From Escherichia phage A4: a stretch of DNA of 64,000 bases. A model generated the notes under the pieces. The model made no database searches, was not told where the DNA came from, and saw nothing but the letters and a program-made list of their open reading frames with translations. Positions 5,644 through 47,095 of this stretch are shown piece by piece. The position numbers and the translations under genes were made by a program. Numbering within the stretch: position 1 is the first letter of the stretch; every line of letters begins with the position of its first letter. The DNA is taken from sequence record ON286972; one strand, given 5' to 3'.

Positions 5644-5976
5644 ATGCTAAATCTAGTTATTCAAGGTAATGTTGATATTACTCCAGCAATCCATGACGCA
5701 ATTCATCAAGAAGCAAACACTCTAAATAAATTTAGTGATTCTTCAGTACTGAATATTGGTGTTCATGTGAAAAAAGAGCATAAGACACAGTACGCAGTAA
5801 CTTTAACATCAGGTGGTAAGTCTGTTACTGCCGATGATGCAGATTTATACAAGGCGATTGTCGATTCATTCGAAAAAATGGAAACTGTATTCAGTAAAGA
5901 CAAAAGCATTAAATTGCACCGCCGAAACCATCCAGACCGTCCAGTTGTAGTTGATGTAACTGACGAAGAAGAGTAA
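5644..5976 (+). CDS. hpf: ribosome hibernation promoting factor (HPF/YfiA family) homolog
   Basis: 110 aa; N-terminus MLNLVIQGNVDITPAIHDAI parallels E. coli HPF MQLNITGNNVEITEALREFV; similar length and overall pattern. Confidence 0.75.
   Translation: MLNLVIQGNVDITPAIHDAIHQEANTLNKFSDSSVLNIGVHVKKEHKTQYAVTLTSGGKSVTADDADLYKAIVDSFEKMETVFSKDKSIKLHRRNHPDRPVVVDVTDEEE
5742..5753. repeat. 12-bp palindrome TTCAGTACTGAA
   Basis: Inside hpf, in the S-S-V-L-N frame. Confidence 0.8.
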
Positions 5977-6441: not shown

Positions 6442-6460
6442 AATGTATAATTACTTTTTA
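6375..6460 (+). repeat. exact 43-bp tandem duplication (2 copies)
   Basis: AGACCTTTTTATATTGTACAATAAAATGTATAATTACTTTTTA at 6375-6417 and 6418-6460; each copy carries an extended -10-like TGTATAAT. Confidence 0.85.
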
Positions 6461-6476
6461 TAATGGAGGTATTGTA

Positions 6477-6662
6477 ATGGAATATACAATAGGTGCAATA
6501 GTATGTATCGCAGCATTATTAGGTGGCATTGGTGTGATGATTTACTTTGATGCAGAACCCAGTACTGAAATGGGTACAACCCTGGAACTCAAACCTGGCA
6601 TTAAGGTGAACGACTCTTACTGTTACGATCCACATAGTAATAAGTATGTGATTTGTTTATGA
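6477..6662 (+). CDS. small membrane protein
   Basis: 61 aa, N-terminal hydrophobic helix, GGAGG RBS. Confidence 0.4.
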   Translation: MEYTIGAIVCIAALLGGIGVMIYFDAEPSTEMGTTLELKPGIKVNDSYCYDPHSNKYVICL

Positions 6663-7069
6663 AAAAGTTTAATATTAAACCGATATTTGATGCTATCGAA
6701 ATTAAATTGAAAGACCAACGAAAACCCGATGGTACTGGTTTATTCTTTAGTTTAGATAGAACCTACGTTGAAACACATGTATCAAGTTTTGATAGAACTG
6801 GTAATCTTTTCATCCGTTCATATAACATGTTTTATAGTGAAGATGTTTTTATGATAGATATCACTTTAGATGAAAGTATAGGTTTGATGTACATTGAAGA
6901 TGTTCAATCAAACGATCAACGAAACGGCACACTTCCTATTGGTGCTACCGAGGAAGAGTTTATGCAATATCAGTTCATTGATGATACCTTTGGTATTGAC
7001 TTTGTGACATATCAGAGTATAATGCGTGTATACGAACAGTATGAGGATTACGTAATTGGACGTTACTAA
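6659..7069 (+). CDS. hypothetical protein (paralog A of a tandem pair)
   Basis: ATG at 6659 overlapping the preceding stop (track starts at TTG 6653); C-terminus homologous to the next gene (QYQFIDDTFGIDF vs QYMFIDDTFSIDY). Confidence 0.55.
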   Translation: MKKFNIKPIFDAIEIKLKDQRKPDGTGLFFSLDRTYVETHVSSFDRTGNLFIRSYNMFYSEDVFMIDITLDESIGLMYIEDVQSNDQRNGTLPIGATEEEFMQYQFIDDTFGIDFVTYQSIMRVYEQYEDYVIGRY

Positions 7070-7478
7070 AATACCCAAATTCAACGAAACGTTAAAGTAC
7101 TTTTCTGAACAAGAGTTCAGTACTGAAAGACGTGGTTTAGTCACATACAACCAATATCGCGTAATGTATACTAACCAGTTACAAGGAACAGTACGTATTA
7201 AAATCCGTAATGCATATGATGATGGTGATGAATTATTAATTATACTAAGAAAAAGTAAGATAGAACTACAATACCATAGATTTGATACTTCCGATGAGTT
7301 TGCATGGAATGTGTTAGAAAAGAAAGTAGGTTCATTGCCTGTAGTTGATGATGGACCTGAAACACTTGATCAGTACATGTTCATTGATGATACATTTAGT
7401 ATTGACTATTCTTCATTTCAGTATATACTATCTATACATAAACAATATGAATCCCGCTTGCGTGACAGATTAATTTAA
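7056..7478 (+). CDS. hypothetical protein (paralog B of a tandem pair)
   Basis: TTG start with GAGGA upstream; C-terminal similarity to the preceding gene. Confidence 0.5.
   Translation: MDVTKIPKFNETLKYFSEQEFSTERRGLVTYNQYRVMYTNQLQGTVRIKIRNAYDDGDELLIILRKSKIELQYHRFDTSDEFAWNVLEKKVGSLPVVDDGPETLDQYMFIDDTFSIDYSSFQYILSIHKQYESRLRDRLI
7116..7127. repeat. 12-bp palindrome TTCAGTACTGAA
   Basis: Inside a CDS, in the F-S-T-E frame. Confidence 0.8.
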
Positions 7479-7489
7479 TTGGAGGCTTT

Positions 7490-7612
7490 ATGATTGCAAT
7501 GTTAGAAGAAGATTGGGGTGTTTCTGAACAAGGAACCGACGAATATCAAGTTCCAGAATACAAGCCAAAAGGCTTCTGGGAAAGTCTGCGTGATTGGTTG
7601 ATGGGAGAATAA
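7490..7612 (+). CDS. small hypothetical protein (40 aa)
   Basis: ATG with GGAGG RBS; acidic/tryptophan-rich; below the ORF-track cutoff. Confidence 0.25.
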   Translation: MIAMLEEDWGVSEQGTDEYQVPEYKPKGFWESLRDWLMGE

Positions 7613-7621
7613 GATTAGAAA

Positions 7622-8689
7622 ATGTATAAATTTTATTTTAATGAAAATAACGAGAAGGTATATTTCCATGAAGAATTAGGTATGCGTTTCGAATGGATGC
7701 GTCCCGAAGATTTATCACCAAAATTAATTAAAACATCAAAAACACCTAAAGAACATTTTGATGAAATAATAGAAAAAGGATATAATATTTTAGGATTTGC
7801 TATAACATCAAGTGATGAATGGAAATCTAGTTTTACAAGAACTGTTGTTGAAAAAGATGGTATTATATATACAAAAAGAAATATAAATGATATAAAAACG
7901 AAAGGTATGAAATATATCATTGGGAAATATGACAATGAAAATTATAGATATTATCTTTATAAGACTTCAAAAAGTCTAATGACTGGTGAATGTGAATTAC
8001 TTTTAGAACAACCAATAATTAAAGATAAAAGAACCAAATTAACTTATAAATGCTTAAAATGTGGTCACGTTGATGAAATGGAAATTAGTAATATACAAAG
8101 TGGTCAGGGTTGCTCTATTTGTCGATTTGAAAAAACCAGATTAGCACACGCATTCACCACCGCTGAATTTGTTGAACGAGCAAAAGAAATTCATGGTAAT
8201 GTATATAACTATTCAAAAGTCATCTACATTAATAGTAGCACTCATGTTGAAATAATTTGTAAAAAACATAATAATTCTTTTTATATCATTCCAAATTTTC
8301 ATATAGCAAAAAATAAAAATCAAGGTTGCCCAATATGCTCATCTGAACATACTGAATCCAGAGCTAGTAGAGAAATAACACGTTTTTTAATTGAAAATGG
8401 TATAAAATTTAATAAAGAACAAACATTTAGTGACTGTAAAAATAAAATGTTATTAAGATTTGATTTTTATTTGGTTGATTATGATATTTGTATTGAGTAT
8501 GATGGTAAACAACATTTTGAGAAATCACCTCATTGGGGTGGAGAAGATAAATTGAAAAACATCAAGGATAACGATACTATAAAGACACAATATTGTGAAA
8601 AGAATTTTATTAAATTAATACGTGTAACATATTATGAAGACCACTTAACTGTATTAAAAAAACATCTTTCAGAGGAAGGTATATTATGA
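7622..8689 (+). CDS. putative free-standing endonuclease (zinc-ribbon Cys pairs plus C-terminal PD-(D/E)xK Vsr/DUF559-like core)
   Basis: Several CxxC pairs (CLKCGH, GCSICR, GCPICS); C-terminal FDFYLVDYDICIEYDGKQHF...IKLIRV resembles the endonuclease core of Vsr/DUF559-type nucleases. Confidence 0.5.
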   Translation: MYKFYFNENNEKVYFHEELGMRFEWMRPEDLSPKLIKTSKTPKEHFDEIIEKGYNILGFAITSSDEWKSSFTRTVVEKDGIIYTKRNINDIKTKGMKYIIGKYDNENYRYYLYKTSKSLMTGECELLLEQPIIKDKRTKLTYKCLKCGHVDEMEISNIQSGQGCSICRFEKTRLAHAFTTAEFVERAKEIHGNVYNYSKVIYINSSTHVEIICKKHNNSFYIIPNFHIAKNKNQGCPICSSEHTESRASREITRFLIENGIKFNKEQTFSDCKNKMLLRFDFYLVDYDICIEYDGKQHFEKSPHWGGEDKLKNIKDNDTIKTQYCEKNFIKLIRVTYYEDHLTVLKKHLSEEGIL

Positions 8690-9798
8690 AAAAGTATTTG
8701 GTGGGCGGCTATGTGAGGGACCGTTTAATGGGTATTCGTACAAAAGACAAAGATTATGTCATTGTCGGTGCTACCGAATCCGATATTAAGTACTTACAAA
8801 GTATTGGCTATAAGCAAGTAGGTAAGGATTTTCCCGTGTATCTAAGTCCAGAGGGTAATGAGCACGCATTGGCCCGTACCGAACGTAAAACTGGTACTGG
8901 TTACGGTGGCTTCGAAGTGAATACTAAAGGCGTGACACTAGAGCAAGATCTATACAGAAGGGATATTACGGTAAATAGCATAGCGTATGATCCAGTACTG
9001 CAAATTCACATCGACCCATACGGTGGTAAAGCTGATATCAAGAATAAAGTACTACGCCATGTATCCGAGCACTTCAAAGAAGATCCATTACGTGTATTAC
9101 GTCTAGCTCGCTTTGCTACGCGTTATTCTGATTTCTCTATACACGAGACTACTGAAGCACTTGCAATCGATATGGTAGCGTCTGGTGAGCTAAATCACCT
9201 TGTTCCAGACCGTGTTTATGTTGAATTTGAAAAAGCACTGTCAGAAGAAAAGCCAGCTAAGTTCCTTAAAACACTAAGTAAGTTGGGTTACTATGAAAAA
9301 GCATTTAATGCAACATTAACCAAAAAGTCATTGGAACTCATTGATCATATCTCTGATAATTGTACTGAAGCATATAAGCCATATTTCTTATGGTCTGTGC
9401 TTCTTGAGAAAGAAGAAGTTGGTGAGGATTCAGTACTGAATGGTGCTATTAAAATGCCCGTTAAGTACGTTAAATTCAGTAATTACATCAAACGTTTCCG
9501 TGATGATATCAAGGCATTCCGTAAAAAGACCCCAAATGAAATGGGACAATTATTACTGGATATGAATATCAAGAATAACGGCGGTGAAGAATTCCTTTAC
9601 AAAGTACTGGAATATTTTATTCTACGTAAAGAGATTGATTTAGACCTTGAAGATTTAATCATTAAGGTATATGATCGTTACACTGATGTAGTACTTCCAG
9701 ATATTCAACAACTGGTAAAAGACGGTGAGTTAGAAGCATCTGAAATCCGTGATTTTGTTTCAGATTTACGTTGTGAAGCAATTCAACAAATGTTTTAA
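8686..9798 (+). CDS. cca: CCA-adding tRNA nucleotidyltransferase
   Basis: LVGGYVRD motif, DFPVYLSPEGNEHALARTERK matching E. coli Cca, RRDITVNS motif; 370 aa without the C-terminal HD domain. Confidence 0.9.
   Translation: MKKYLVGGYVRDRLMGIRTKDKDYVIVGATESDIKYLQSIGYKQVGKDFPVYLSPEGNEHALARTERKTGTGYGGFEVNTKGVTLEQDLYRRDITVNSIAYDPVLQIHIDPYGGKADIKNKVLRHVSEHFKEDPLRVLRLARFATRYSDFSIHETTEALAIDMVASGELNHLVPDRVYVEFEKALSEEKPAKFLKTLSKLGYYEKAFNATLTKKSLELIDHISDNCTEAYKPYFLWSVLLEKEEVGEDSVLNGAIKMPVKYVKFSNYIKRFRDDIKAFRKKTPNEMGQLLLDMNIKNNGGEEFLYKVLEYFILRKEIDLDLEDLIIKVYDRYTDVVLPDIQQLVKDGELEASEIRDFVSDLRCEAIQQMF
9429..9440. repeat. 12-bp palindrome TTCAGTACTGAA (14-bp ATTCAGTACTGAAT)
   Basis: Inside cca, in the D-S-V-L-N frame. 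Confidence 0.8.
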
Positions 9799-9804
9799 AA
9801 CTCT

Positions 9805-9832
9805 GGGACAAGAGAACGACTTCTGATATAAT
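9805..9832 (+). promoter_or_regulatory. sigma70-like early promoter upstream of the NUDIX gene
   Basis: GGGACA, 16-bp spacer, TGaTATAAT. Confidence 0.5.
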
Positions 9833-9884
9833 AATTGTATCTGGGCATCATTGCTATTAAGAGATAAGATTATGCGTTATAGTT

Positions 9885-10301
9885 GTGGCATTATATTTTA
9901 TCGTGATGGTCAGATACTTGTTGGACACACAACACGGACAGAAGCATTGGGATTTACCAAAAGGTAAAACCGAGGGCAATGAAACATTTGCTGAAGCTGC
10001 TGTTCGTGAGTGCTATGAAGAAACAGGATTTGAGATTGATGAAAAGGATCTTCTCTTATTAGGTGATGTATCATACAGGAAAGGGAAAAGATTAGTTTTA
10101 TTTTTCTATACAGCTAAATACAAACCCGAACCGGATGAACTGAAGTGTAACAGTACTTATACCAATCGATATGGTAAAAGCCATCCAGAATTGGATAAAT
10201 TCATGTACATTGATGTTCAAGATTGTCAAAAGTATTTGACCGAACGAATGTGTAACAGTATAATTAAAGCTGTTAAATTGTTTCAAAAAAATAAAGGATA
10301 G
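9885..10301 (+). CDS. NUDIX hydrolase, apparently frameshifted (N-terminal strand encoded in another frame from ATG 9872)
   Basis: Nudix box GKTEGNETFAEAAVRECYEETGFE; track ORF begins at GTG 9885, while ATG 9872 opens a 31-codon frame (MRYSCGIIFYRDGQILVGHTT...) that looks like the missing N-terminus. Confidence 0.55.
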   Translation: MALYFIVMVRYLLDTQHGQKHWDLPKGKTEGNETFAEAAVRECYEETGFEIDEKDLLLLGDVSYRKGKRLVLFFYTAKYKPEPDELKCNSTYTNRYGKSHPELDKFMYIDVQDCQKYLTERMCNSIIKAVKLFQKNKG

Positions 10302-10305
10302 TTAT

Positions 10306-10554
10306 ATGAAAGTGAAAATTTATGGTCGCACGACTGGTTGTAATTTCTGTGATACAGCAAAAGCAATTTGTGAGAACAATTCATTTGAAATGGATTTTAT
10401 CGATGTGGTTTCTGAAGGTATTGATGGTGCTAAACTATCAGAAATTTGCGGTGAGCCAGTTCGTCAAGTTCCACAAATTTTCGTAAATGATGAGTATGTT
10501 CCTGGTGGATGTACTGGTTTTGTTAACGGGCTAAAAGAAGGTCGCTGGAACTAA
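10306..10554 (+). CDS. nrdC: glutaredoxin/thioredoxin-like protein (T4 NrdC-like)
   Basis: 82 aa, CNFC redox motif near the N-terminus, PQIFVNDEYVPGG resembling the glutaredoxin cis-Pro region. Confidence 0.8.
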   Translation: MKVKIYGRTTGCNFCDTAKAICENNSFEMDFIDVVSEGIDGAKLSEICGEPVRQVPQIFVNDEYVPGGCTGFVNGLKEGRWN

Positions 10555-10793
10555 TGAATATCGATAAGGTATCATCACGAGCACGTGCATTGGCTGACAG
10601 TTTGGGAGTTAAATTTGAAACTCCAGATATCAACCAATCAAAACAAAAAGCTCAAAAGAAAATTCATGAAATGAAAGAATACACATCAAGACGTGAAGAA
10701 TACGATGCTGCTATTTCTCACATTATTGAAGTGTTTAGTAAAGATGATATTTTAGCATTTATTGCTTCACATGAGGTTGTAAAAAACCCCTAA
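10554..10793 (+). CDS. hypothetical protein
   Basis: 79-aa ORF, ATG overlapping the preceding stop. Confidence 0.5.
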   Translation: MNIDKVSSRARALADSLGVKFETPDINQSKQKAQKKIHEMKEYTSRREEYDAAISHIIEVFSKDDILAFIASHEVVKNP

Positions 10794-10843
10794 ATAATAT
10801 TGAAGAACAACAAGTTCTTCTTAACAATTTGGGAGATACTATT

Positions 10844-11086
10844 ATGCTCAGTTTTCGTGAACAATTAGCAAAAGGTCAATTTCAGACTAAAGCTCAAACA
10901 AATATTCCTAAAAAATCTGCATTCTTAGGAACAATTACGGAAGATGGTTATTGTGACTTCAATCCACCAGAAGATAGCTGGTATATTGAAAAAGACACAA
11001 AACGTAGTAATAGACTTCACAAAAGTACAATAGCAAGAAAGCATCGAAAAGAATTGAAGAAAATTCGTTTCGGTGAAGAAGAATAA
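10844..11086 (+). CDS. hypothetical protein
   Basis: ATG at 10844 with GGAG upstream (track starts at TTG 10829); basic C-terminus. Confidence 0.45.
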   Translation: MLSFREQLAKGQFQTKAQTNIPKKSAFLGTITEDGYCDFNPPEDSWYIEKDTKRSNRLHKSTIARKHRKELKKIRFGEEE

Positions 11087-11097
11087 CCTAATAATAT

Positions 11098-11130
11098 AAA
11101 GGACTTGAGATTATCGAGTCCTTTTCTTTT
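11098..11130 (+). terminator. rho-independent terminator
   Basis: GGACTTGA / TCGAGTCC stem (one G-U), 5-nt loop, TTTTCTTTT tail. Confidence 0.55.
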
Positions 11131-11140
11131 CGGAGAACAC

Positions 11141-11617
11141 ATGATACATGAACATCACGGAAATCTGTTTGAATTATTCAGTACTGTAACTGATGATCAT
11201 ACTGCATTACATATTATAGCTCATGGTTGTAATGCTCAAGGTAAAATGGGTTCTGGTTTTGCAAAAGAACTCAGAATGCAGTACCCAAAGGCATATGATG
11301 ATTATAAAGAATATGAAAAGAGAATGGGTTTTCTAAGAACCGGACAAATTGCATATTCAGCAATTAATGATGATTTGATTATCGCAAACTGCATTACTCA
11401 AAAATGGTACGGAACTGATGGTGCAAAATACGTAAGCTATGATGCCATTGATGACGTTTTCATGCATTTGAATTTTTTCTGTAAAATTGAACGAAATGTT
11501 CATGTACACTTTCCGAAAATTGGAGCCGATTTGGGCGGTGGTAACTGGAACGTTATCAAAGAAATCATTGACCACAGGCTGGTTAATGCTGAAAAACATT
11601 TATATATTCTCAAATAA
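11141..11617 (+). CDS. macro domain protein (OARD1/TARG1-like, Macro_2 type)
   Basis: LHIIAHGCNAQGKMGSGFAKEL and HFPKIGADLGGGNW parallel TARG1 LAHCISEDCRMGAGIAVLF and MPRIGCGLDRLQW; ATG 11141 follows a terminator hairpin (track TTG start 11105 lies inside the hairpin). Confidence 0.7.
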   Translation: MIHEHHGNLFELFSTVTDDHTALHIIAHGCNAQGKMGSGFAKELRMQYPKAYDDYKEYEKRMGFLRTGQIAYSAINDDLIIANCITQKWYGTDGAKYVSYDAIDDVFMHLNFFCKIERNVHVHFPKIGADLGGGNWNVIKEIIDHRLVNAEKHLYILK

Positions 11618-11636
11618 ACAAAAGGACTTGACAAAA

Positions 11637-11945
11637 ATGACTATTACCGTTAAACTACTAAACATCAACAACGTTGGCCCAGTACTAGCAGTTCTACAAA
11701 CCGATGCTCCAGAAGCAGTAGTAGTTAACTACCCAGCACAGCTAGGTACTGACGAAAAAGGTGAAATCATTCTACGTGATTATCTAGAATTTATTAGTTC
11801 AGAAAAAGGTGTTATTTTCTTCAAATCTAACATCATCAGTATCAGTGATGCAAACCCTGCACTGGTTGATGCTTATGTTGAAGCAATTAAGACTCTAGAA
11901 GATAAGCCAGCGTTGATTGTCCCTGACAACAAAATCATCCTATAA
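11637..11945 (+). CDS. hypothetical protein
   Basis: ATG at 11637 with AAAGGA upstream; the track ORF start 11487 overlaps the macro gene. Confidence 0.5.
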   Translation: MTITVKLLNINNVGPVLAVLQTDAPEAVVVNYPAQLGTDEKGEIILRDYLEFISSEKGVIFFKSNIISISDANPALVDAYVEAIKTLEDKPALIVPDNKIIL

Positions 11946-11957
11946 TAGAGGTATAAA

Positions 11958-12335
11958 ATGGCTGCTAATGAAGTGAAAGCAAAAACTATTCAAGCTATCG
12001 TAGTACTGAAAGGTAAAACCCCATCACCAAAAGAATTGGTTATGGCTGGCATGACTATGCTACATCAGTACAACCCAGCATCCCCTAACTATGTTCAAGA
12101 ATATGAAGCCAAACAGTTTAAAGCTCATTGGGATTCATGGATTAAAGACAATGAACTGGAACAAGTTGTCTATGAAGCAGATGACATGGATGAAATGATG
12201 CAGATTGAATATCTTGCGAATCAGCAGTCAGTACCACTAAGTATGTTTGGTAATGGGGAAGAGGTTCTAGTACTCGGCCCCTTCACTAAAAAAGATATTG
12301 AACACATTGTCACTAACTGTACAAAGATAAGTTAG
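11958..12335 (+). CDS. hypothetical protein
   Basis: 125-aa ORF with RBS. Confidence 0.5.
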   Translation: MAANEVKAKTIQAIVVLKGKTPSPKELVMAGMTMLHQYNPASPNYVQEYEAKQFKAHWDSWIKDNELEQVVYEADDMDEMMQIEYLANQQSVPLSMFGNGEEVLVLGPFTKKDIEHIVTNCTKIS

Positions 12336-12547
12336 TGAGCGATCATCTTTTAACAGGTGTTTATAATCATAAATTAATAGTCGGGAATACTCATTACTGG
12401 ATTGAGCCAAATCAAGACTATATAATATACTATCATGATGGGAAACATATATATTCAGTTAGTATATTTGGTTTCCTTGATATGATAGATACTGAACACT
12501 TTGTTAACTTAGTTTATTTGCGTTGTTGGTACGATAGACTAAGCTAA
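12335..12547 (+). CDS. hypothetical protein
   Basis: 70-aa ORF with GTG start overlapping the previous stop. Confidence 0.3.
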   Translation: MSDHLLTGVYNHKLIVGNTHYWIEPNQDYIIYYHDGKHIYSVSIFGFLDMIDTEHFVNLVYLRCWYDRLS

Positions 12548-12553
12548 ATCAAT

Positions 12554-12598
12554 AGCACCTCTAAATAATGTATATAAACATTAAAGAGGTGCTTTTTT
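12554..12598 (+). terminator. hairpin with long loop followed by T-run
   Basis: AGCACCTCT / AGAGGTGCT 9-bp stem, 22-nt loop containing TATATAAA, then TTTTTT. Confidence 0.35.
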
Positions 12599-13390
12599 AT
12601 GTCATATGACTATATGGGTGGAAATCCAGATGCCCCAAATTACGATCACCGTGAAAAATTAAAAGATGTGATTACACAAATGTTGGGTGCTGGTGCTGTT
12701 GAAGTTGAAATTACTGATGGACAATTAGAAATCGCAATCGATAATGCGGTATCAAACTACAGAGCATGGAGTTCTGCATCAAAAGAAGAAGCTTTTTTAA
12801 GCATGAAATTCTATGATTCTCAATCAGTTTACATGCTACCAACTGAAGTAGAAATTGTTAAGAAAATTTATCGTTATGGTAATGGTTATTTGAGTTCTGG
12901 TAGTGGTAACTCGGTTGACCCATTTTCAATTGCATTTACAAACACATATCTACTAACGTCTGCTCGCAACGCTGGTGGTTATGATTTAACAACCTATGAC
13001 TTCAGTTTCCAGTTTCAGGAATTAGTAGGTCGTATGTTTGGACGTGAGATTATTTTCCAGTTTAATCCCATGACTAAGAAACTGGTTATTGACCGTGATA
13101 TTCGCGGCACAGAAGAAGTACTGGTTCATGTGTATCATAACATCCCAGAACCACTACTATTCCAACGTCAAATGAGTTATCCGTGGCTTCGTGATTGGGC
13201 TTTATCGGAAGCGATGATTATGTTAGGTCGCAACCGTGCTAAGTTTGCTTCTTTGCCTGGACCACAAGGAACATTTTCAATGGATGGTGATACACTTCGT
13301 AATGAAGGTATGCAACTCCAGGAACAACTTAAAGAACAGTTGAAGAGATACAAAGATGGTGGTGAACCACTTGGTATGATTATTGGTTAA
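12599..13390 (+). CDS. hypothetical protein, possibly virion/tail-associated
   Basis: 263-aa ORF upstream of the dNMP kinase and tail sheath genes; followed by a strong terminator. Confidence 0.5.
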   Translation: MSYDYMGGNPDAPNYDHREKLKDVITQMLGAGAVEVEITDGQLEIAIDNAVSNYRAWSSASKEEAFLSMKFYDSQSVYMLPTEVEIVKKIYRYGNGYLSSGSGNSVDPFSIAFTNTYLLTSARNAGGYDLTTYDFSFQFQELVGRMFGREIIFQFNPMTKKLVIDRDIRGTEEVLVHVYHNIPEPLLFQRQMSYPWLRDWALSEAMIMLGRNRAKFASLPGPQGTFSMDGDTLRNEGMQLQEQLKEQLKRYKDGGEPLGMIIG

Positions 13391-13400
13391 AATAAAAAAA

Positions 13401-13425
13401 AGACTCCATGTTGGGGTCTTTTTTC
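13401..13425 (+). terminator. rho-independent terminator
   Basis: AGACTCCA / TGGGGTCT stem, 3-nt loop, TTTTTT tail. Confidence 0.6.
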
Positions 13426-13440
13426 ATATACGGTGATATA

Positions 13441-13698
13441 ATGACAATTGAATATGCAAAATTCAGATGTGGAAAATTAAGCGACAATTATTTCGAATCA
13501 GAACAGTACTGGCGATTTATCAAAAATGCATTAGTAGATGTATTCACCAGGGATGTAATTAACGCATGGGCAAGTATATGCAGGGATGATAATGGAAAAA
13601 CATTTTATGTTGTATATGTGTCAGTATACAACGGTAATGAAACTATTATTGATATAGTTAGAAGCTTAGTTGGTGATGAATATATGAAGGAAGTGTAA
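13441..13698 (+). CDS. hypothetical protein
   Basis: ATG at 13441 just after the terminator (track start 13408 lies inside the hairpin). Confidence 0.4.
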   Translation: MTIEYAKFRCGKLSDNYFESEQYWRFIKNALVDVFTRDVINAWASICRDDNGKTFYVVYVSVYNGNETIIDIVRSLVGDEYMKEV

Positions 13699-29627: not shown

Positions 29628-29925
29628 AGTTACTAGAGAAGATATCATTCTCAAAATAACTGAAGAAAGACAGAAACAAATAGATAATCCAAATACATTA
29701 TCTGATACACTTAAAACAAAGAATGATTGGGCTTCCTTATGTGCCTATTATCTCTTCGAAGGGGCAACTCGCCCCGATAAGCATGTATCATTCGATGAAT
29801 TTAGAGAGTCCTTAATCAAAGCTGGTGCTGTCATTTTGGCAGCCCTTGAAACCAGTTTCGCATTAGAGGATGAGAAATTACAAGAATTAATGTCTGCTTT
29901 GGAACATAAGAATGACGATAAATGA
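29620..29925 (+). CDS. hypothetical protein
   Basis: ATG at 29620 overlapping the previous stop (ATGGCTAA); track ORF from 29599. Confidence 0.45.
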   Translation: MAKVTREDIILKITEERQKQIDNPNTLSDTLKTKNDWASLCAYYLFEGATRPDKHVSFDEFRESLIKAGAVILAALETSFALEDEKLQELMSALEHKNDDK

Positions 29926-30502
29926 ACTTGATGAAGCAATCAAGGGATTAACTAATACATTTTATAGCGGTGGTGCACAAGGTGCAGACCGCTTTTTCAC
30001 TTTATATGCTATGGAAAATGGTTTTAATGTAATTAACTTTTCATTCAAAAATCATAATCATAGTGTTGATGAAAGTACTATATTAGAAATCCCATCTTAT
30101 ATTTTGAATGATAGTTCTATTCTACATCAACTAAACATGGCATGTTATTCATTACAACGCCGTGTACCTAAACCTGGCTCGTATGTTTATAATCTATTAG
30201 CTCGTAATAGATATCAAATTTTAAACACAGAGAGAGTTTATTGTATGGCTTCACTTGTTTCACCTACTCAAGTTAGTGGTGGTACTGCATGGGCTGTACA
30301 AATGTATATTGACAGTACTGATAATCCTGAAATATACTGCTATGACATTAATGACAGAAAAGTATATTCATATAATCCAGTACTAAAAGAATTCGAAGAA
30401 ACCGCATCAGTACCTAAGCCGCATGGAAATTGGACGGGAATAGGCTCAAGAAATGCACAAGAAAAGCATATGATGCACTTTACAACATTTTTTCAAGGAT
30501 GA
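29912..30502 (+). CDS. hypothetical protein, possible SLOG/DprA-like Rossmann fold
   Basis: N-terminal YSGGAQGADRFF resembles the glycine-rich SLOG motif; weak assignment. Confidence 0.4.
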   Translation: MTINELDEAIKGLTNTFYSGGAQGADRFFTLYAMENGFNVINFSFKNHNHSVDESTILEIPSYILNDSSILHQLNMACYSLQRRVPKPGSYVYNLLARNRYQILNTERVYCMASLVSPTQVSGGTAWAVQMYIDSTDNPEIYCYDINDRKVYSYNPVLKEFEETASVPKPHGNWTGIGSRNAQEKHMMHFTTFFQG

Positions 30503-46606: not shown

Positions 46607-46632
46607 AAAAGGAGCCATTGGCTCCTTTTTTT
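46607..46632. terminator. bidirectional terminator between convergent genes
   Basis: AAAAGGAGCC-ATT-GGCTCCTTTTTTT. Confidence 0.65.
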
Positions 46633-47095
46633 AATATCTATATGGTAGACTATTGACAAATTGTGTACCAGCGTTTATACTTTCCCATAAAGAATAAAAA
46701 TCTTTCATCAAATTGACATTTAATAATGTATTTTTAGCTCCAGGGTGAAGAGGTTTAGGCCATGAGCCAATTTTAACCCAAGCATATCCAGAGCTTTCCT
46801 TATTGAGAATAGGAACAAACTCATTTTCAACAACAACAACGAAAGAATAATATTTGAACTTACCATTCTTAGTACAAAATACATCAAAGGGTATAATATC
46901 AATTATATCAGGTAACGAATCTCCCAATTCTTCTCGTATTTCACGATGCAAAGCTTGCAAAGGGGATTCGTTGTATTCGAGTTTTCCACCAACAAAAGCC
47001 CAGTTGTTTGAATAGGTACTGCTTTCAGATCTAAGATTGAGCATCATATGACCAGTACTTTTAGATAAAAATATTGCTCCTACTGCCTCATTCAT
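46631..47095 (-). CDS. NUDIX hydrolase
   Basis: Nudix box GGKLEYNESPLQALHREIREELG; strong AAGGAGG RBS. Confidence 0.75.
   Translation of the reverse strand: MNEAVGAIFLSKSTGHMMLNLRSESSTYSNNWAFVGGKLEYNESPLQALHREIREELGDSLPDIIDIIPFDVFCTKNGKFKYYSFVVVVENEFVPILNKESSGYAWVKIGSWPKPLHPGAKNTLLNVNLMKDFYSLWESINAGTQFVNSLPYRY

Follow-up and report, generated by a model that had tools for sequence, protein, structure and literature searches.

In phage T4, a transposon screen on a host carrying DarTG2 had a single hit, tk.4; T4 becomes sensitive to DarTG2 when this gene is deleted, and the gene received the name adfM (preprint 10.1101/2025.11.20.689424). The name AdfM was given independently to gp104 of PhiKZ, a standalone macrodomain protein of a jumbo phage, which removes DarT2 adducts from DNA (PMC13309987), and the cellular protein SCO6735 removes DarT-made ADP-ribose from thymidine both in vitro and in cells (PMC9411070). 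Here we describe a standalone macrodomain gene in a stretch of 64,000 nucleotides (nt) from Escherichia phage A4 (sequence record ON286972; the whole stretch is called the window below). The gene is under strong purifying selection, and its product (the macro protein) has a catalytic site resembling, at the sequence level, those of SCO6735 and T4 Tk.4. We favour, with confidence evenly balanced for and against, the reading that it is an orphan antitoxin-like (AdfM-like) DNA ADP-ribosylglycohydrolase that removes DarT2-type ADP-ribose from thymidine in single-stranded phage DNA.

The macrodomain gene and its conservation

The DNA identity of the window to the Asteriusvirus jumbo phages 121Q, PBECO4, G17, Sharanji and phAPEC6 is about 83%, and its source is a 121Q/PBECO4-like (Asteriusvirus-like) jumbo phage. 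The gene and its ribosome-binding site are located as follows.

11132..11135, plus strand: Shine-Dalgarno sequence GGAG, read from the sequence, 5 nt 5' of the ATG and conserved in 121Q
11141..11617, plus strand: macrodomain gene, the orthologue of 121Q gp544, 158 amino acids (aa) and a TAA stop

The ATG at 11141 is the same start as the one annotated for 121Q gp544, and the stop codon occupies 11615-11617. The original prediction, which had been made from the sequence alone, gave the gene the coordinates 11098-11617; the end agrees with ours, while 11098 is out of frame and coincides with the first base of a hairpin. Both glycine-rich segments quoted in it occur in one frame, CNAQGKMGSGFAKEL as residues 30-44 and FPKIGADLGGGNW as residues 124-136.

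We calculated the ratio of the rates of non-synonymous and synonymous substitutions (dN/dS) against the 121Q orthologue. The ratio is 0.078 at a dS of 0.86, demonstrating strong purifying selection, and the gene is a real one, more than a chance open reading frame (ORF). A word-indexed search found 166 homologues of the macro protein at E<=1e-3, and an exhaustive search found 18,647 cluster representatives at the same threshold, 1,029 of them at <=1e-30; TBLASTN with the macro protein produced matches in 1,787 phage records. Neither TBLASTN nor a profile search found a second macrodomain in the window. The product of 121Q gp544 is already annotated as 'macro domain-containing protein / Appr-1-p processing', so the macro domain annotation of the orthologues exists in related genomes, and the mechanism class has been published.

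Fold and class assignment

The Macro_2 label of the original prediction was not borne out, as the Pfam scan gave no Macro_2 match at E<=1. The only Pfam match was PF01661 (Macro), which at 17.5 bits against a gathering score of 22 (E 0.004) is below the threshold; since many homologues have a precomputed PF01661 match, this score points to divergence rather than to a missing domain. PHROG 335 ('phosphatase') matches the macro protein at 1.6e-43. The AlphaFold2 model, built from an alignment of 44 sequences, has a predicted local distance difference test score (pLDDT) of 94.1 and a predicted template modelling score (pTM) of 0.90, and displays the three-layer alpha/beta/alpha macro fold.

Solved structures were ranked in two ways, by the model and by the E value of the family profile against the PDB sequences:

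BT1257: model ranking 22.2; profile E 1.8e-27
SCO6735: no separate listing in the model ranking; profile E 6.9e-21
Yeast Poa1p: model ranking 18.0; profile E 9e-16
DarG (Mycobacterium tuberculosis; Thermus aquaticus): model ranking 18.0 (M. tuberculosis); profile E 6e-14
TARG1: model ranking 17.6; profile E 6e-12
Thermosipho DarTG: model ranking 17.2; profile E 7.5e-10
ALC1: absent among the 60 matches listed in the model ranking; profile E 0.012
All other macrodomains: model ranking <=14.7; profile E >=0.06

Both by sequence and by structure, the macro protein is nearer to the ALC1-like class (TARG1, DarG, ALC1 and SCO6735) than to the MacroD-type, viral, macroH2A and PARG macrodomains, and we assign it to the ALC1-like class because of these two rankings. 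The nearest solved relatives, judging by the profile and the model, are BT1257 and SCO6735 rather than TARG1, and sequence comparison places the protein closest to the Gln-type subclass formed by BT1257, SCO6735 and T4 Tk.4. The DarG model of PADLOC detects the macro protein (1.8e-10) about as well as T4 Tk.4 (1.3e-9), PhiKZ AdfM being matched at 4.4e-39; the macro protein covers only positions 17-136 of the 329 positions of this model. The NCBIfam model antitoxin_DarG matches it with an E value of 1.4e-7 and 31 bits, against a cut-off of 250 bits.

Active-site residues

Conservation was assessed in 121 homologues and in 143 further representatives of clusters at 50% identity; the reference sequences were checked against PDB 2LGR for TARG1 and against PDB 5M3I and 5M31 for DarG. 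The elements of the putative active site are the following.

11222..11257, plus strand: loop 1, H28-G39 (HGCNAQGKMGSG), with His28 and Asn31 aligned to His24 and Asn27 of SCO6735
11399..11401, plus strand: codon CAA of Gln87, aligned to TARG1 Lys84, DarG Lys80, PhiKZ AdfM Lys78 and SCO6735 Gln85
11402..11434, plus strand: 'mobile loop' K88-V98, following Gln87, located from hhalign gaps
11513..11548, plus strand: phosphate-binding loop P125-W136 (PKIGADLGGGNW), aligned gap-free to PRIGCGLAGGTW of SCO6735 and PRIGCGLDRLQW of TARG1
11528..11530, plus strand: codon GAT of Asp130, aligned gap-free to TARG1 Gly123 and SCO6735 Gly128; a clade-specific deviation

The protein had been described as an OARD1/TARG1-type macrodomain, with the catalytic Lys and Asp of such enzymes to be looked for in an alignment. 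The macro fold and the membership in the ALC1-like class, which contains TARG1, agree with this description. The strict TARG1 type does not, since Lys84 and Asp125 of TARG1 correspond to Gln87 and Gly132 in the phage protein; likewise, the catalytic Lys of DarG2 (K80 of the T. aquaticus protein, in the motif FPTKK) corresponds to Gln87. The missing Lys/Asp dyad does not imply inactivity, because SCO6735 needs its Gln85: the substitutions Q85A and Q85E kill the activity, Asn27, whose mutation also impairs it, locks the Gln, and the reaction was proposed to be water-mediated (PMC9411070).

Gln at the catalytic position is common to the macro protein, SCO6735, BT1257 and T4 Tk.4, and the macro protein also has the Asn and His equivalents of the SCO6735/BT1257 subclass (Gln87, Asn31 and His28). 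Asn31, Gly39 and Gln87 are invariant in all 264 sequences (121/121 homologues and 143/143 further representatives), and His28 is present in 121/121 and 140/143, respectively. The mobile loop, a hallmark of the SCO6735/BT1257 subclass when it extends about five residues beyond those of TARG1 and DarG (PMC9411070), is long in the macro protein as well, being four residues longer than in TARG1 and T4 Tk.4 and one residue shorter than in SCO6735. Hence the catalytic-site residues of SCO6735 and T4 Tk.4 are, by alignment, conserved in the macro protein. Among phage 'phosphatase/Appr-1-p' macrodomains (PHROG 335), the majority belongs to the Gln type seen in SCO6735 and T4 Tk.4, not to the Lys type of DarG and TARG1.

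The similarity to Poa1p, an ADP-ribose-1''-phosphate phosphatase, is in line with another explanation, in which the macro protein would act on small ADP-ribose derivatives, such as ADP-ribose-1''-phosphate, O-acetyl-ADP-ribose or immune signals (Thoeris gcADPR, His-ADPR), in series with a NUDIX hydrolase. Such a role was argued for phage macrodomains in general (PMC9503650). However, in Poa1p the invariant Gln is replaced by Ser and the phosphate loop differs (PQINSGIFGVPW, compared to PKIGADLGGGNW in the macro protein), the 'phosphatase' names are inherited annotation rather than tests, and the experimental data for the Gln type comprise only DarT-modified DNA and protein adducts for SCO6735 and DarTG2 resistance for T4 Tk.4. 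We consider this explanation unlikely.

Proposed reaction

The scheme that we prefer is that of an AdfM-like enzyme acting on phage DNA. Once a DarT2-type toxin of the host had ADP-ribosylated thymidines in single-stranded phage DNA, the ADP-ribose would be bound by the macro protein between two loops, loop 1 (HGCN...GSG) on one side and PKIGADLGGG on the other. With Asn31 fixing it in place, Gln87 would orient the distal ribose, and a water-mediated reaction would cleave the bond between ribose and thymine, leaving intact DNA and free ADP-ribose. The latter could then be degraded by the neighboring NudE-like NUDIX enzyme, as NudE of T4 acts on ADP-ribose (PMC9503650). Each of the catalytic activity, the thymidine substrate in DNA, the DarT2 target and the cooperation with NUDIX is thus a proposal.

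This scheme is supported by the matches to DarG models, the precedents of SCO6735 and PhiKZ AdfM, the invariant Gln87 and Asn31, and the kinship with T4 Tk.4. The family profile aligns with T4 Tk.4 at an E value of 1.1e-23 (hhalign, probability 99.6) and with PhiKZ gp104 at 1.6e-14, so that the gene encodes a standalone phage macrodomain homologous to both. Further support comes from the low dN/dS and from the distribution of the family in T5-like phages. One homologue (P0084) is located in the early region of a T5-like metagenomic contig (3462-7500), beside cpYpsA (SLOG), HD_4 and Gad2 and near a homologue of T5 A2; with the anti-Gabija protein Gad2, these surroundings look like an early anti-defence island. 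T5 itself is sensitive to DarTG2 (preprint 10.1101/2025.11.20.689424), and no member of the macrodomain family was found in its bases 1-100,000. Two T5 genes, T5.102 and T5.105 (6447-8094 of the T5 stretch), are annotated as Sir2-like.

A counter to ADP-ribosylation-based defence, as had been suggested for this gene, is thus the function best supported by analogy, because the closest characterized relatives are SCO6735 and T4 Tk.4/AdfM, although the subtype on which the suggestion was based was wrong. As a whole, the original prediction is partly supported, being right in outline.

Several observations weigh against the AdfM-like scheme. The identity of the macro protein to T4 Tk.4 is only 31%, and the T4 evidence is genetic and comes from a preprint (10.1101/2025.11.20.689424). 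The lysines K34 and K89, with which SCO6735 holds DNA, are not positionally conserved in the macro protein. The gene lies inside a block of neck and tail morphogenesis genes, among those for HPF, a CCA-adding enzyme and a weak PTH2-like protein, and not in an obvious early anti-defence region; this location near a morphogenesis module is not incompatible with an anti-DarT role, since DNA packaging is the main step that DarT2 blocks in PhiKZ (PMC13309987). The phAPEC6 orthologue gp283c is absent from the 62 virion proteins of that phage, a data set of limited sensitivity in which the neck protein gp280c and the sheath protein gp277c are present, so delivery of the macro protein together with the DNA is unsupported. 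Finally, Asp130 occupies the site where TARG1 and SCO6735 have Gly123 and Gly128. The TARG1 substitution G123E is the standard mutant with abolished ADP-ribose binding (PMC5928194), SCO6735 G128E loses most of the activity, and the authors of the latter study suggested that a negative charge at this site would repel DNA (PMC9411070).

The Asp130 deviation

The residue aligned with Asp130 is Gly in 54, Asp in 44, Ala in 9, Val in 7 and Glu in 3 of the 121 homologues. Gly is also found in 126/143 of the broader representatives and is the majority state of the family. The Asp state is limited to one clade, the Rak2/121Q-like (Rak2/Asterius-like) jumbo phages, with Ala, Glu and Tyr variants nested inside it. 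In PhiKZ AdfM, an enzyme that acts on DarT2-modified DNA (PMC13309987), the residue is Ala. The occurrence of Asp, Glu, Ala and Tyr within the clade and of Ala in the active PhiKZ enzyme suggests that the phosphate loop tolerates a side chain here. The macro enzyme is probably still active despite Asp130. The possibility that Asp130 is an essential catalytic residue was also considered, and is unlikely given the nested Ala, Glu and Tyr variants.

That the site is exactly the one at which G123E in TARG1 and G128E in SCO6735 damage binding or activity could mean that the Gly-to-Asp change has destroyed ligand binding, leaving a non-catalytic or ADP-ribose-blind macrodomain that serves as a reader or scaffold. 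But Gln87, Asn31, Gly39 and His28 do not vary across the Asp-bearing clade, with its identity range of 45-90%, the gene shows a dN/dS of 0.078, and both the activity of PhiKZ AdfM and the variation within the clade speak against a lethal effect of side chains at this site. We regard the loss of binding as very improbable.

A more tentative proposal, which we think will probably turn out to be wrong, is that the Asp clade binds its ligand differently, with the substrate shifted from DarT2-modified DNA to RNA-linked or small-molecule ADP-ribose in conjunction with the NUDIX and translation-related neighbors, or else that Asp130 is a relocated general base, in a Gln/Asp variant of the Lys/Asp dyad of TARG1. 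The Gly-to-Asp change is the single real deviation of the macro protein and the only feature of it worth an experiment.

Three histidines, His5, His121 and His153 (codons 11153-11155, 11501-11503 and 11597-11599), lie on three separate beta-strands and are found mainly in the Asp130 clade. Their co-variation with Asp130 probably reflects shared ancestry, and for this reason was set aside as a functional signal; alternatively, they could form a structural or metal site.

Possible other macromolecular substrates

SCO6735 and TARG1 act on proteins too, hydrolyzing both protein-linked ADP-ribose and DNA adducts (PMC9411070), so the fold leaves the substrate unfixed. The macro protein might accordingly be an active ADP-ribosylhydrolase of other macromolecular adducts, either Glu/Asp-linked ADP-ribose on proteins, attached by host toxins or phage transferases, or ADP-ribosylated mRNA or tRNA, and would then protect translation rather than DNA. 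The block containing HPF, the CCA-adding enzyme and the weak PTH2-like gene is conserved in jumbo phages from those of E. coli to those of Xanthomonas, which fits this explanation, and the acidic Asp130 disfavours DNA according to the charge argument made for SCO6735. On the other hand, T4 Tk.4, the closest phage relative with a phenotype, maps to the DNA-modifying system DarTG2; neither the window nor the 121Q annotation, over the matching 65 kilobases, showed an ADP-ribosyltransferase gene; and gene neighborhood in jumbo phages is weak evidence of a functional link. Weighing these points, we think such substrates improbable as the main target, and retain the DarT2-directed AdfM-like enzyme as the preferred reading.

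Genomic context and expression

The surroundings of the macro gene, and two more distant genes of related interest, are listed below.

5644-5976: HPF (ribosome hibernation factor)
7622-8689, plus strand: ORF of 355 aa with a DUF4379 treble-clef zinc finger (E 2e-7), overlapping the start of the CCA gene by 4 nt
8686-9798: CCA-adding enzyme (Pfam), upstream of the macro gene
9906..10301, plus strand: NUDIX hydrolase (Pfam NUDIX, E 2.2e-12), annotated as NudE-like in 121Q
10306-10554: glutaredoxin (Pfam), upstream of the macro gene
10554-10793, plus strand: small ORF directly after glutaredoxin, with a weak partial glutaredoxin match (E 0.004)
11098..11124, plus strand: terminator-like hairpin found by a pattern scan (11-pair stem, loop of 5 nt) with a T-run after it, located between the macro gene and the small gene that precedes it
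11958-12335, plus strand: second gene downstream of the macro gene, with a weak match to PTH2 (peptidyl-tRNA hydrolase; E 5e-4, below the cut-off)
29912-30502, plus strand: ORF with a weak match to YAcAr/cpYpsA-related SLOG (E 7.5e-4, below the cut-off), adjoining thymidylate synthase; the 121Q homologue is annotated as DprA-like
46631-47095, minus strand: another NUDIX hydrolase (E 3.4e-15), surrounded by tail and baseplate genes and annotated as MutT-like in 121Q (gp578)

Pfam places the CCA, NUDIX and glutaredoxin genes upstream of the macro gene, as had been predicted from the sequence. The gene order lysozyme, HPF, CCA, NUDIX, glutaredoxin, macro, weak PTH2-like, gp13-like neck, deoxynucleoside monophosphate kinase and tail sheath is kept through to the Xanthomonas jumbo phage XaC1, whose macro orthologue is 45% identical; because of this conserved order we consider the macro gene a core gene of the jumbo-phage lineage, located at the edge of the morphogenesis module. 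The syntenic gene of XaC1 (7091-7489 of the XaC1 stretch) was independently flagged as 'PTH2 (weak)', and HPF, the CCA enzyme and the weak PTH2-like gene form a translation-related cluster around the macro gene.

The ORF at 10554-10793 may be a degenerate duplicate of glutaredoxin. The slot of the ORF at 7622-8689 holds five small genes (534-538) in 121Q instead, and so this ORF looks like a mobile, homing-endonuclease-like insertion. A joint action of SLOG domains with Macro and NUDIX proteins of phages has been suggested (PMC9503650).

121Q keeps the hairpin at 11098-11124, with compensatory changes in the inner stem (TTGA/TCGA here and TCTG/CAGA in 121Q), and it would act as a terminator. 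As it lies only 16 nt from the ATG, expression of the macro gene would have to depend on read-through or on a promoter of an undetected type. Scanning of the region 8400-13500 for promoters of the sigma-70 type gave 21 sites with 21.2 expected, and the window contains just two copies of the T4 late motif TATAAATA, both away from the macro gene. The string AAGGACTTGA, present before and after the macro gene, was considered as a regulatory motif and rejected: the downstream copy is the ribosome-binding region of the next gene and is identical in 121Q. With at most one mismatch, the string has 10 matches compared to 4.66 expected, and 10 matches were reached in 3/100 shuffles. The PA5oct transcriptome paper makes no mention of a macro gene.

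Comparison with known macrodomain systems

If the preferred reading is correct, the Rak2/121Q-like jumbo phages would join T4 and PhiKZ as carriers of an orphan antitoxin-like enzyme. It would also help to predict the host range on strains bearing DarTG2 for these phages, which are therapy candidates against E. coli, Klebsiella and Salmonella. For enzymology, the Gly-to-Asp replacement, which occurs naturally at a standard knock-out position, offers an inexpensive and informative target. Current concepts would be unchanged, as this would be an AdfM-like phage macrodomain of a published mechanism class.

Among the described systems, human TARG1/OARD1 (PDB 4J5S, 2LGR) is 19% identical to the macro protein and differs in the dyad Lys84/Asp125, replaced by Gln87/Gly132, as well as in Gly123, replaced by Asp130. 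Poa1p (PDB 6LFQ) differs by Ser at the Gln87 position, by its phosphate loop and by a large insertion before this loop. PhiKZ gp104 AdfM and the DarG2 macrodomain (PDB 5M3I, 5M31/5M3E) are of the Lys type (FPTK; K78/K80) with an xTVN loop, whereas the macro protein is of the Gln type. DarG also has a C-terminal DarT-binding domain, which the macro protein, a single domain of 158 aa, does not have, and neither the 121Q annotation nor the Pfam scan of the neighborhood revealed a DarT-like neighbor gene.

SCO6735 of Streptomyces coelicolor (PDB 5E3B) and BT1257 of Bacteroides thetaiotaomicron (PDB 2FG1/2AFC) are cellular proteins with about 26% identity to the macro protein; Gly128 and Val25 of SCO6735 correspond to Asp130 and Gly29, respectively. 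T4 Tk.4 resembles the macro protein in being a standalone phage macrodomain of about 155 aa, in sharing the HGCN loop, the Thr-Gln catalytic position and the PxIGAxxGxGNW loop, and in matching the PADLOC DarG model about equally well. Its residue in place of Asp130 is Gly, its mobile loop is four residues shorter, and its gene is located in the tk-vs region, while that of the present phage is in the neck/tail block. Of these two, only T4 Tk.4 has an established anti-DarTG2 phenotype.
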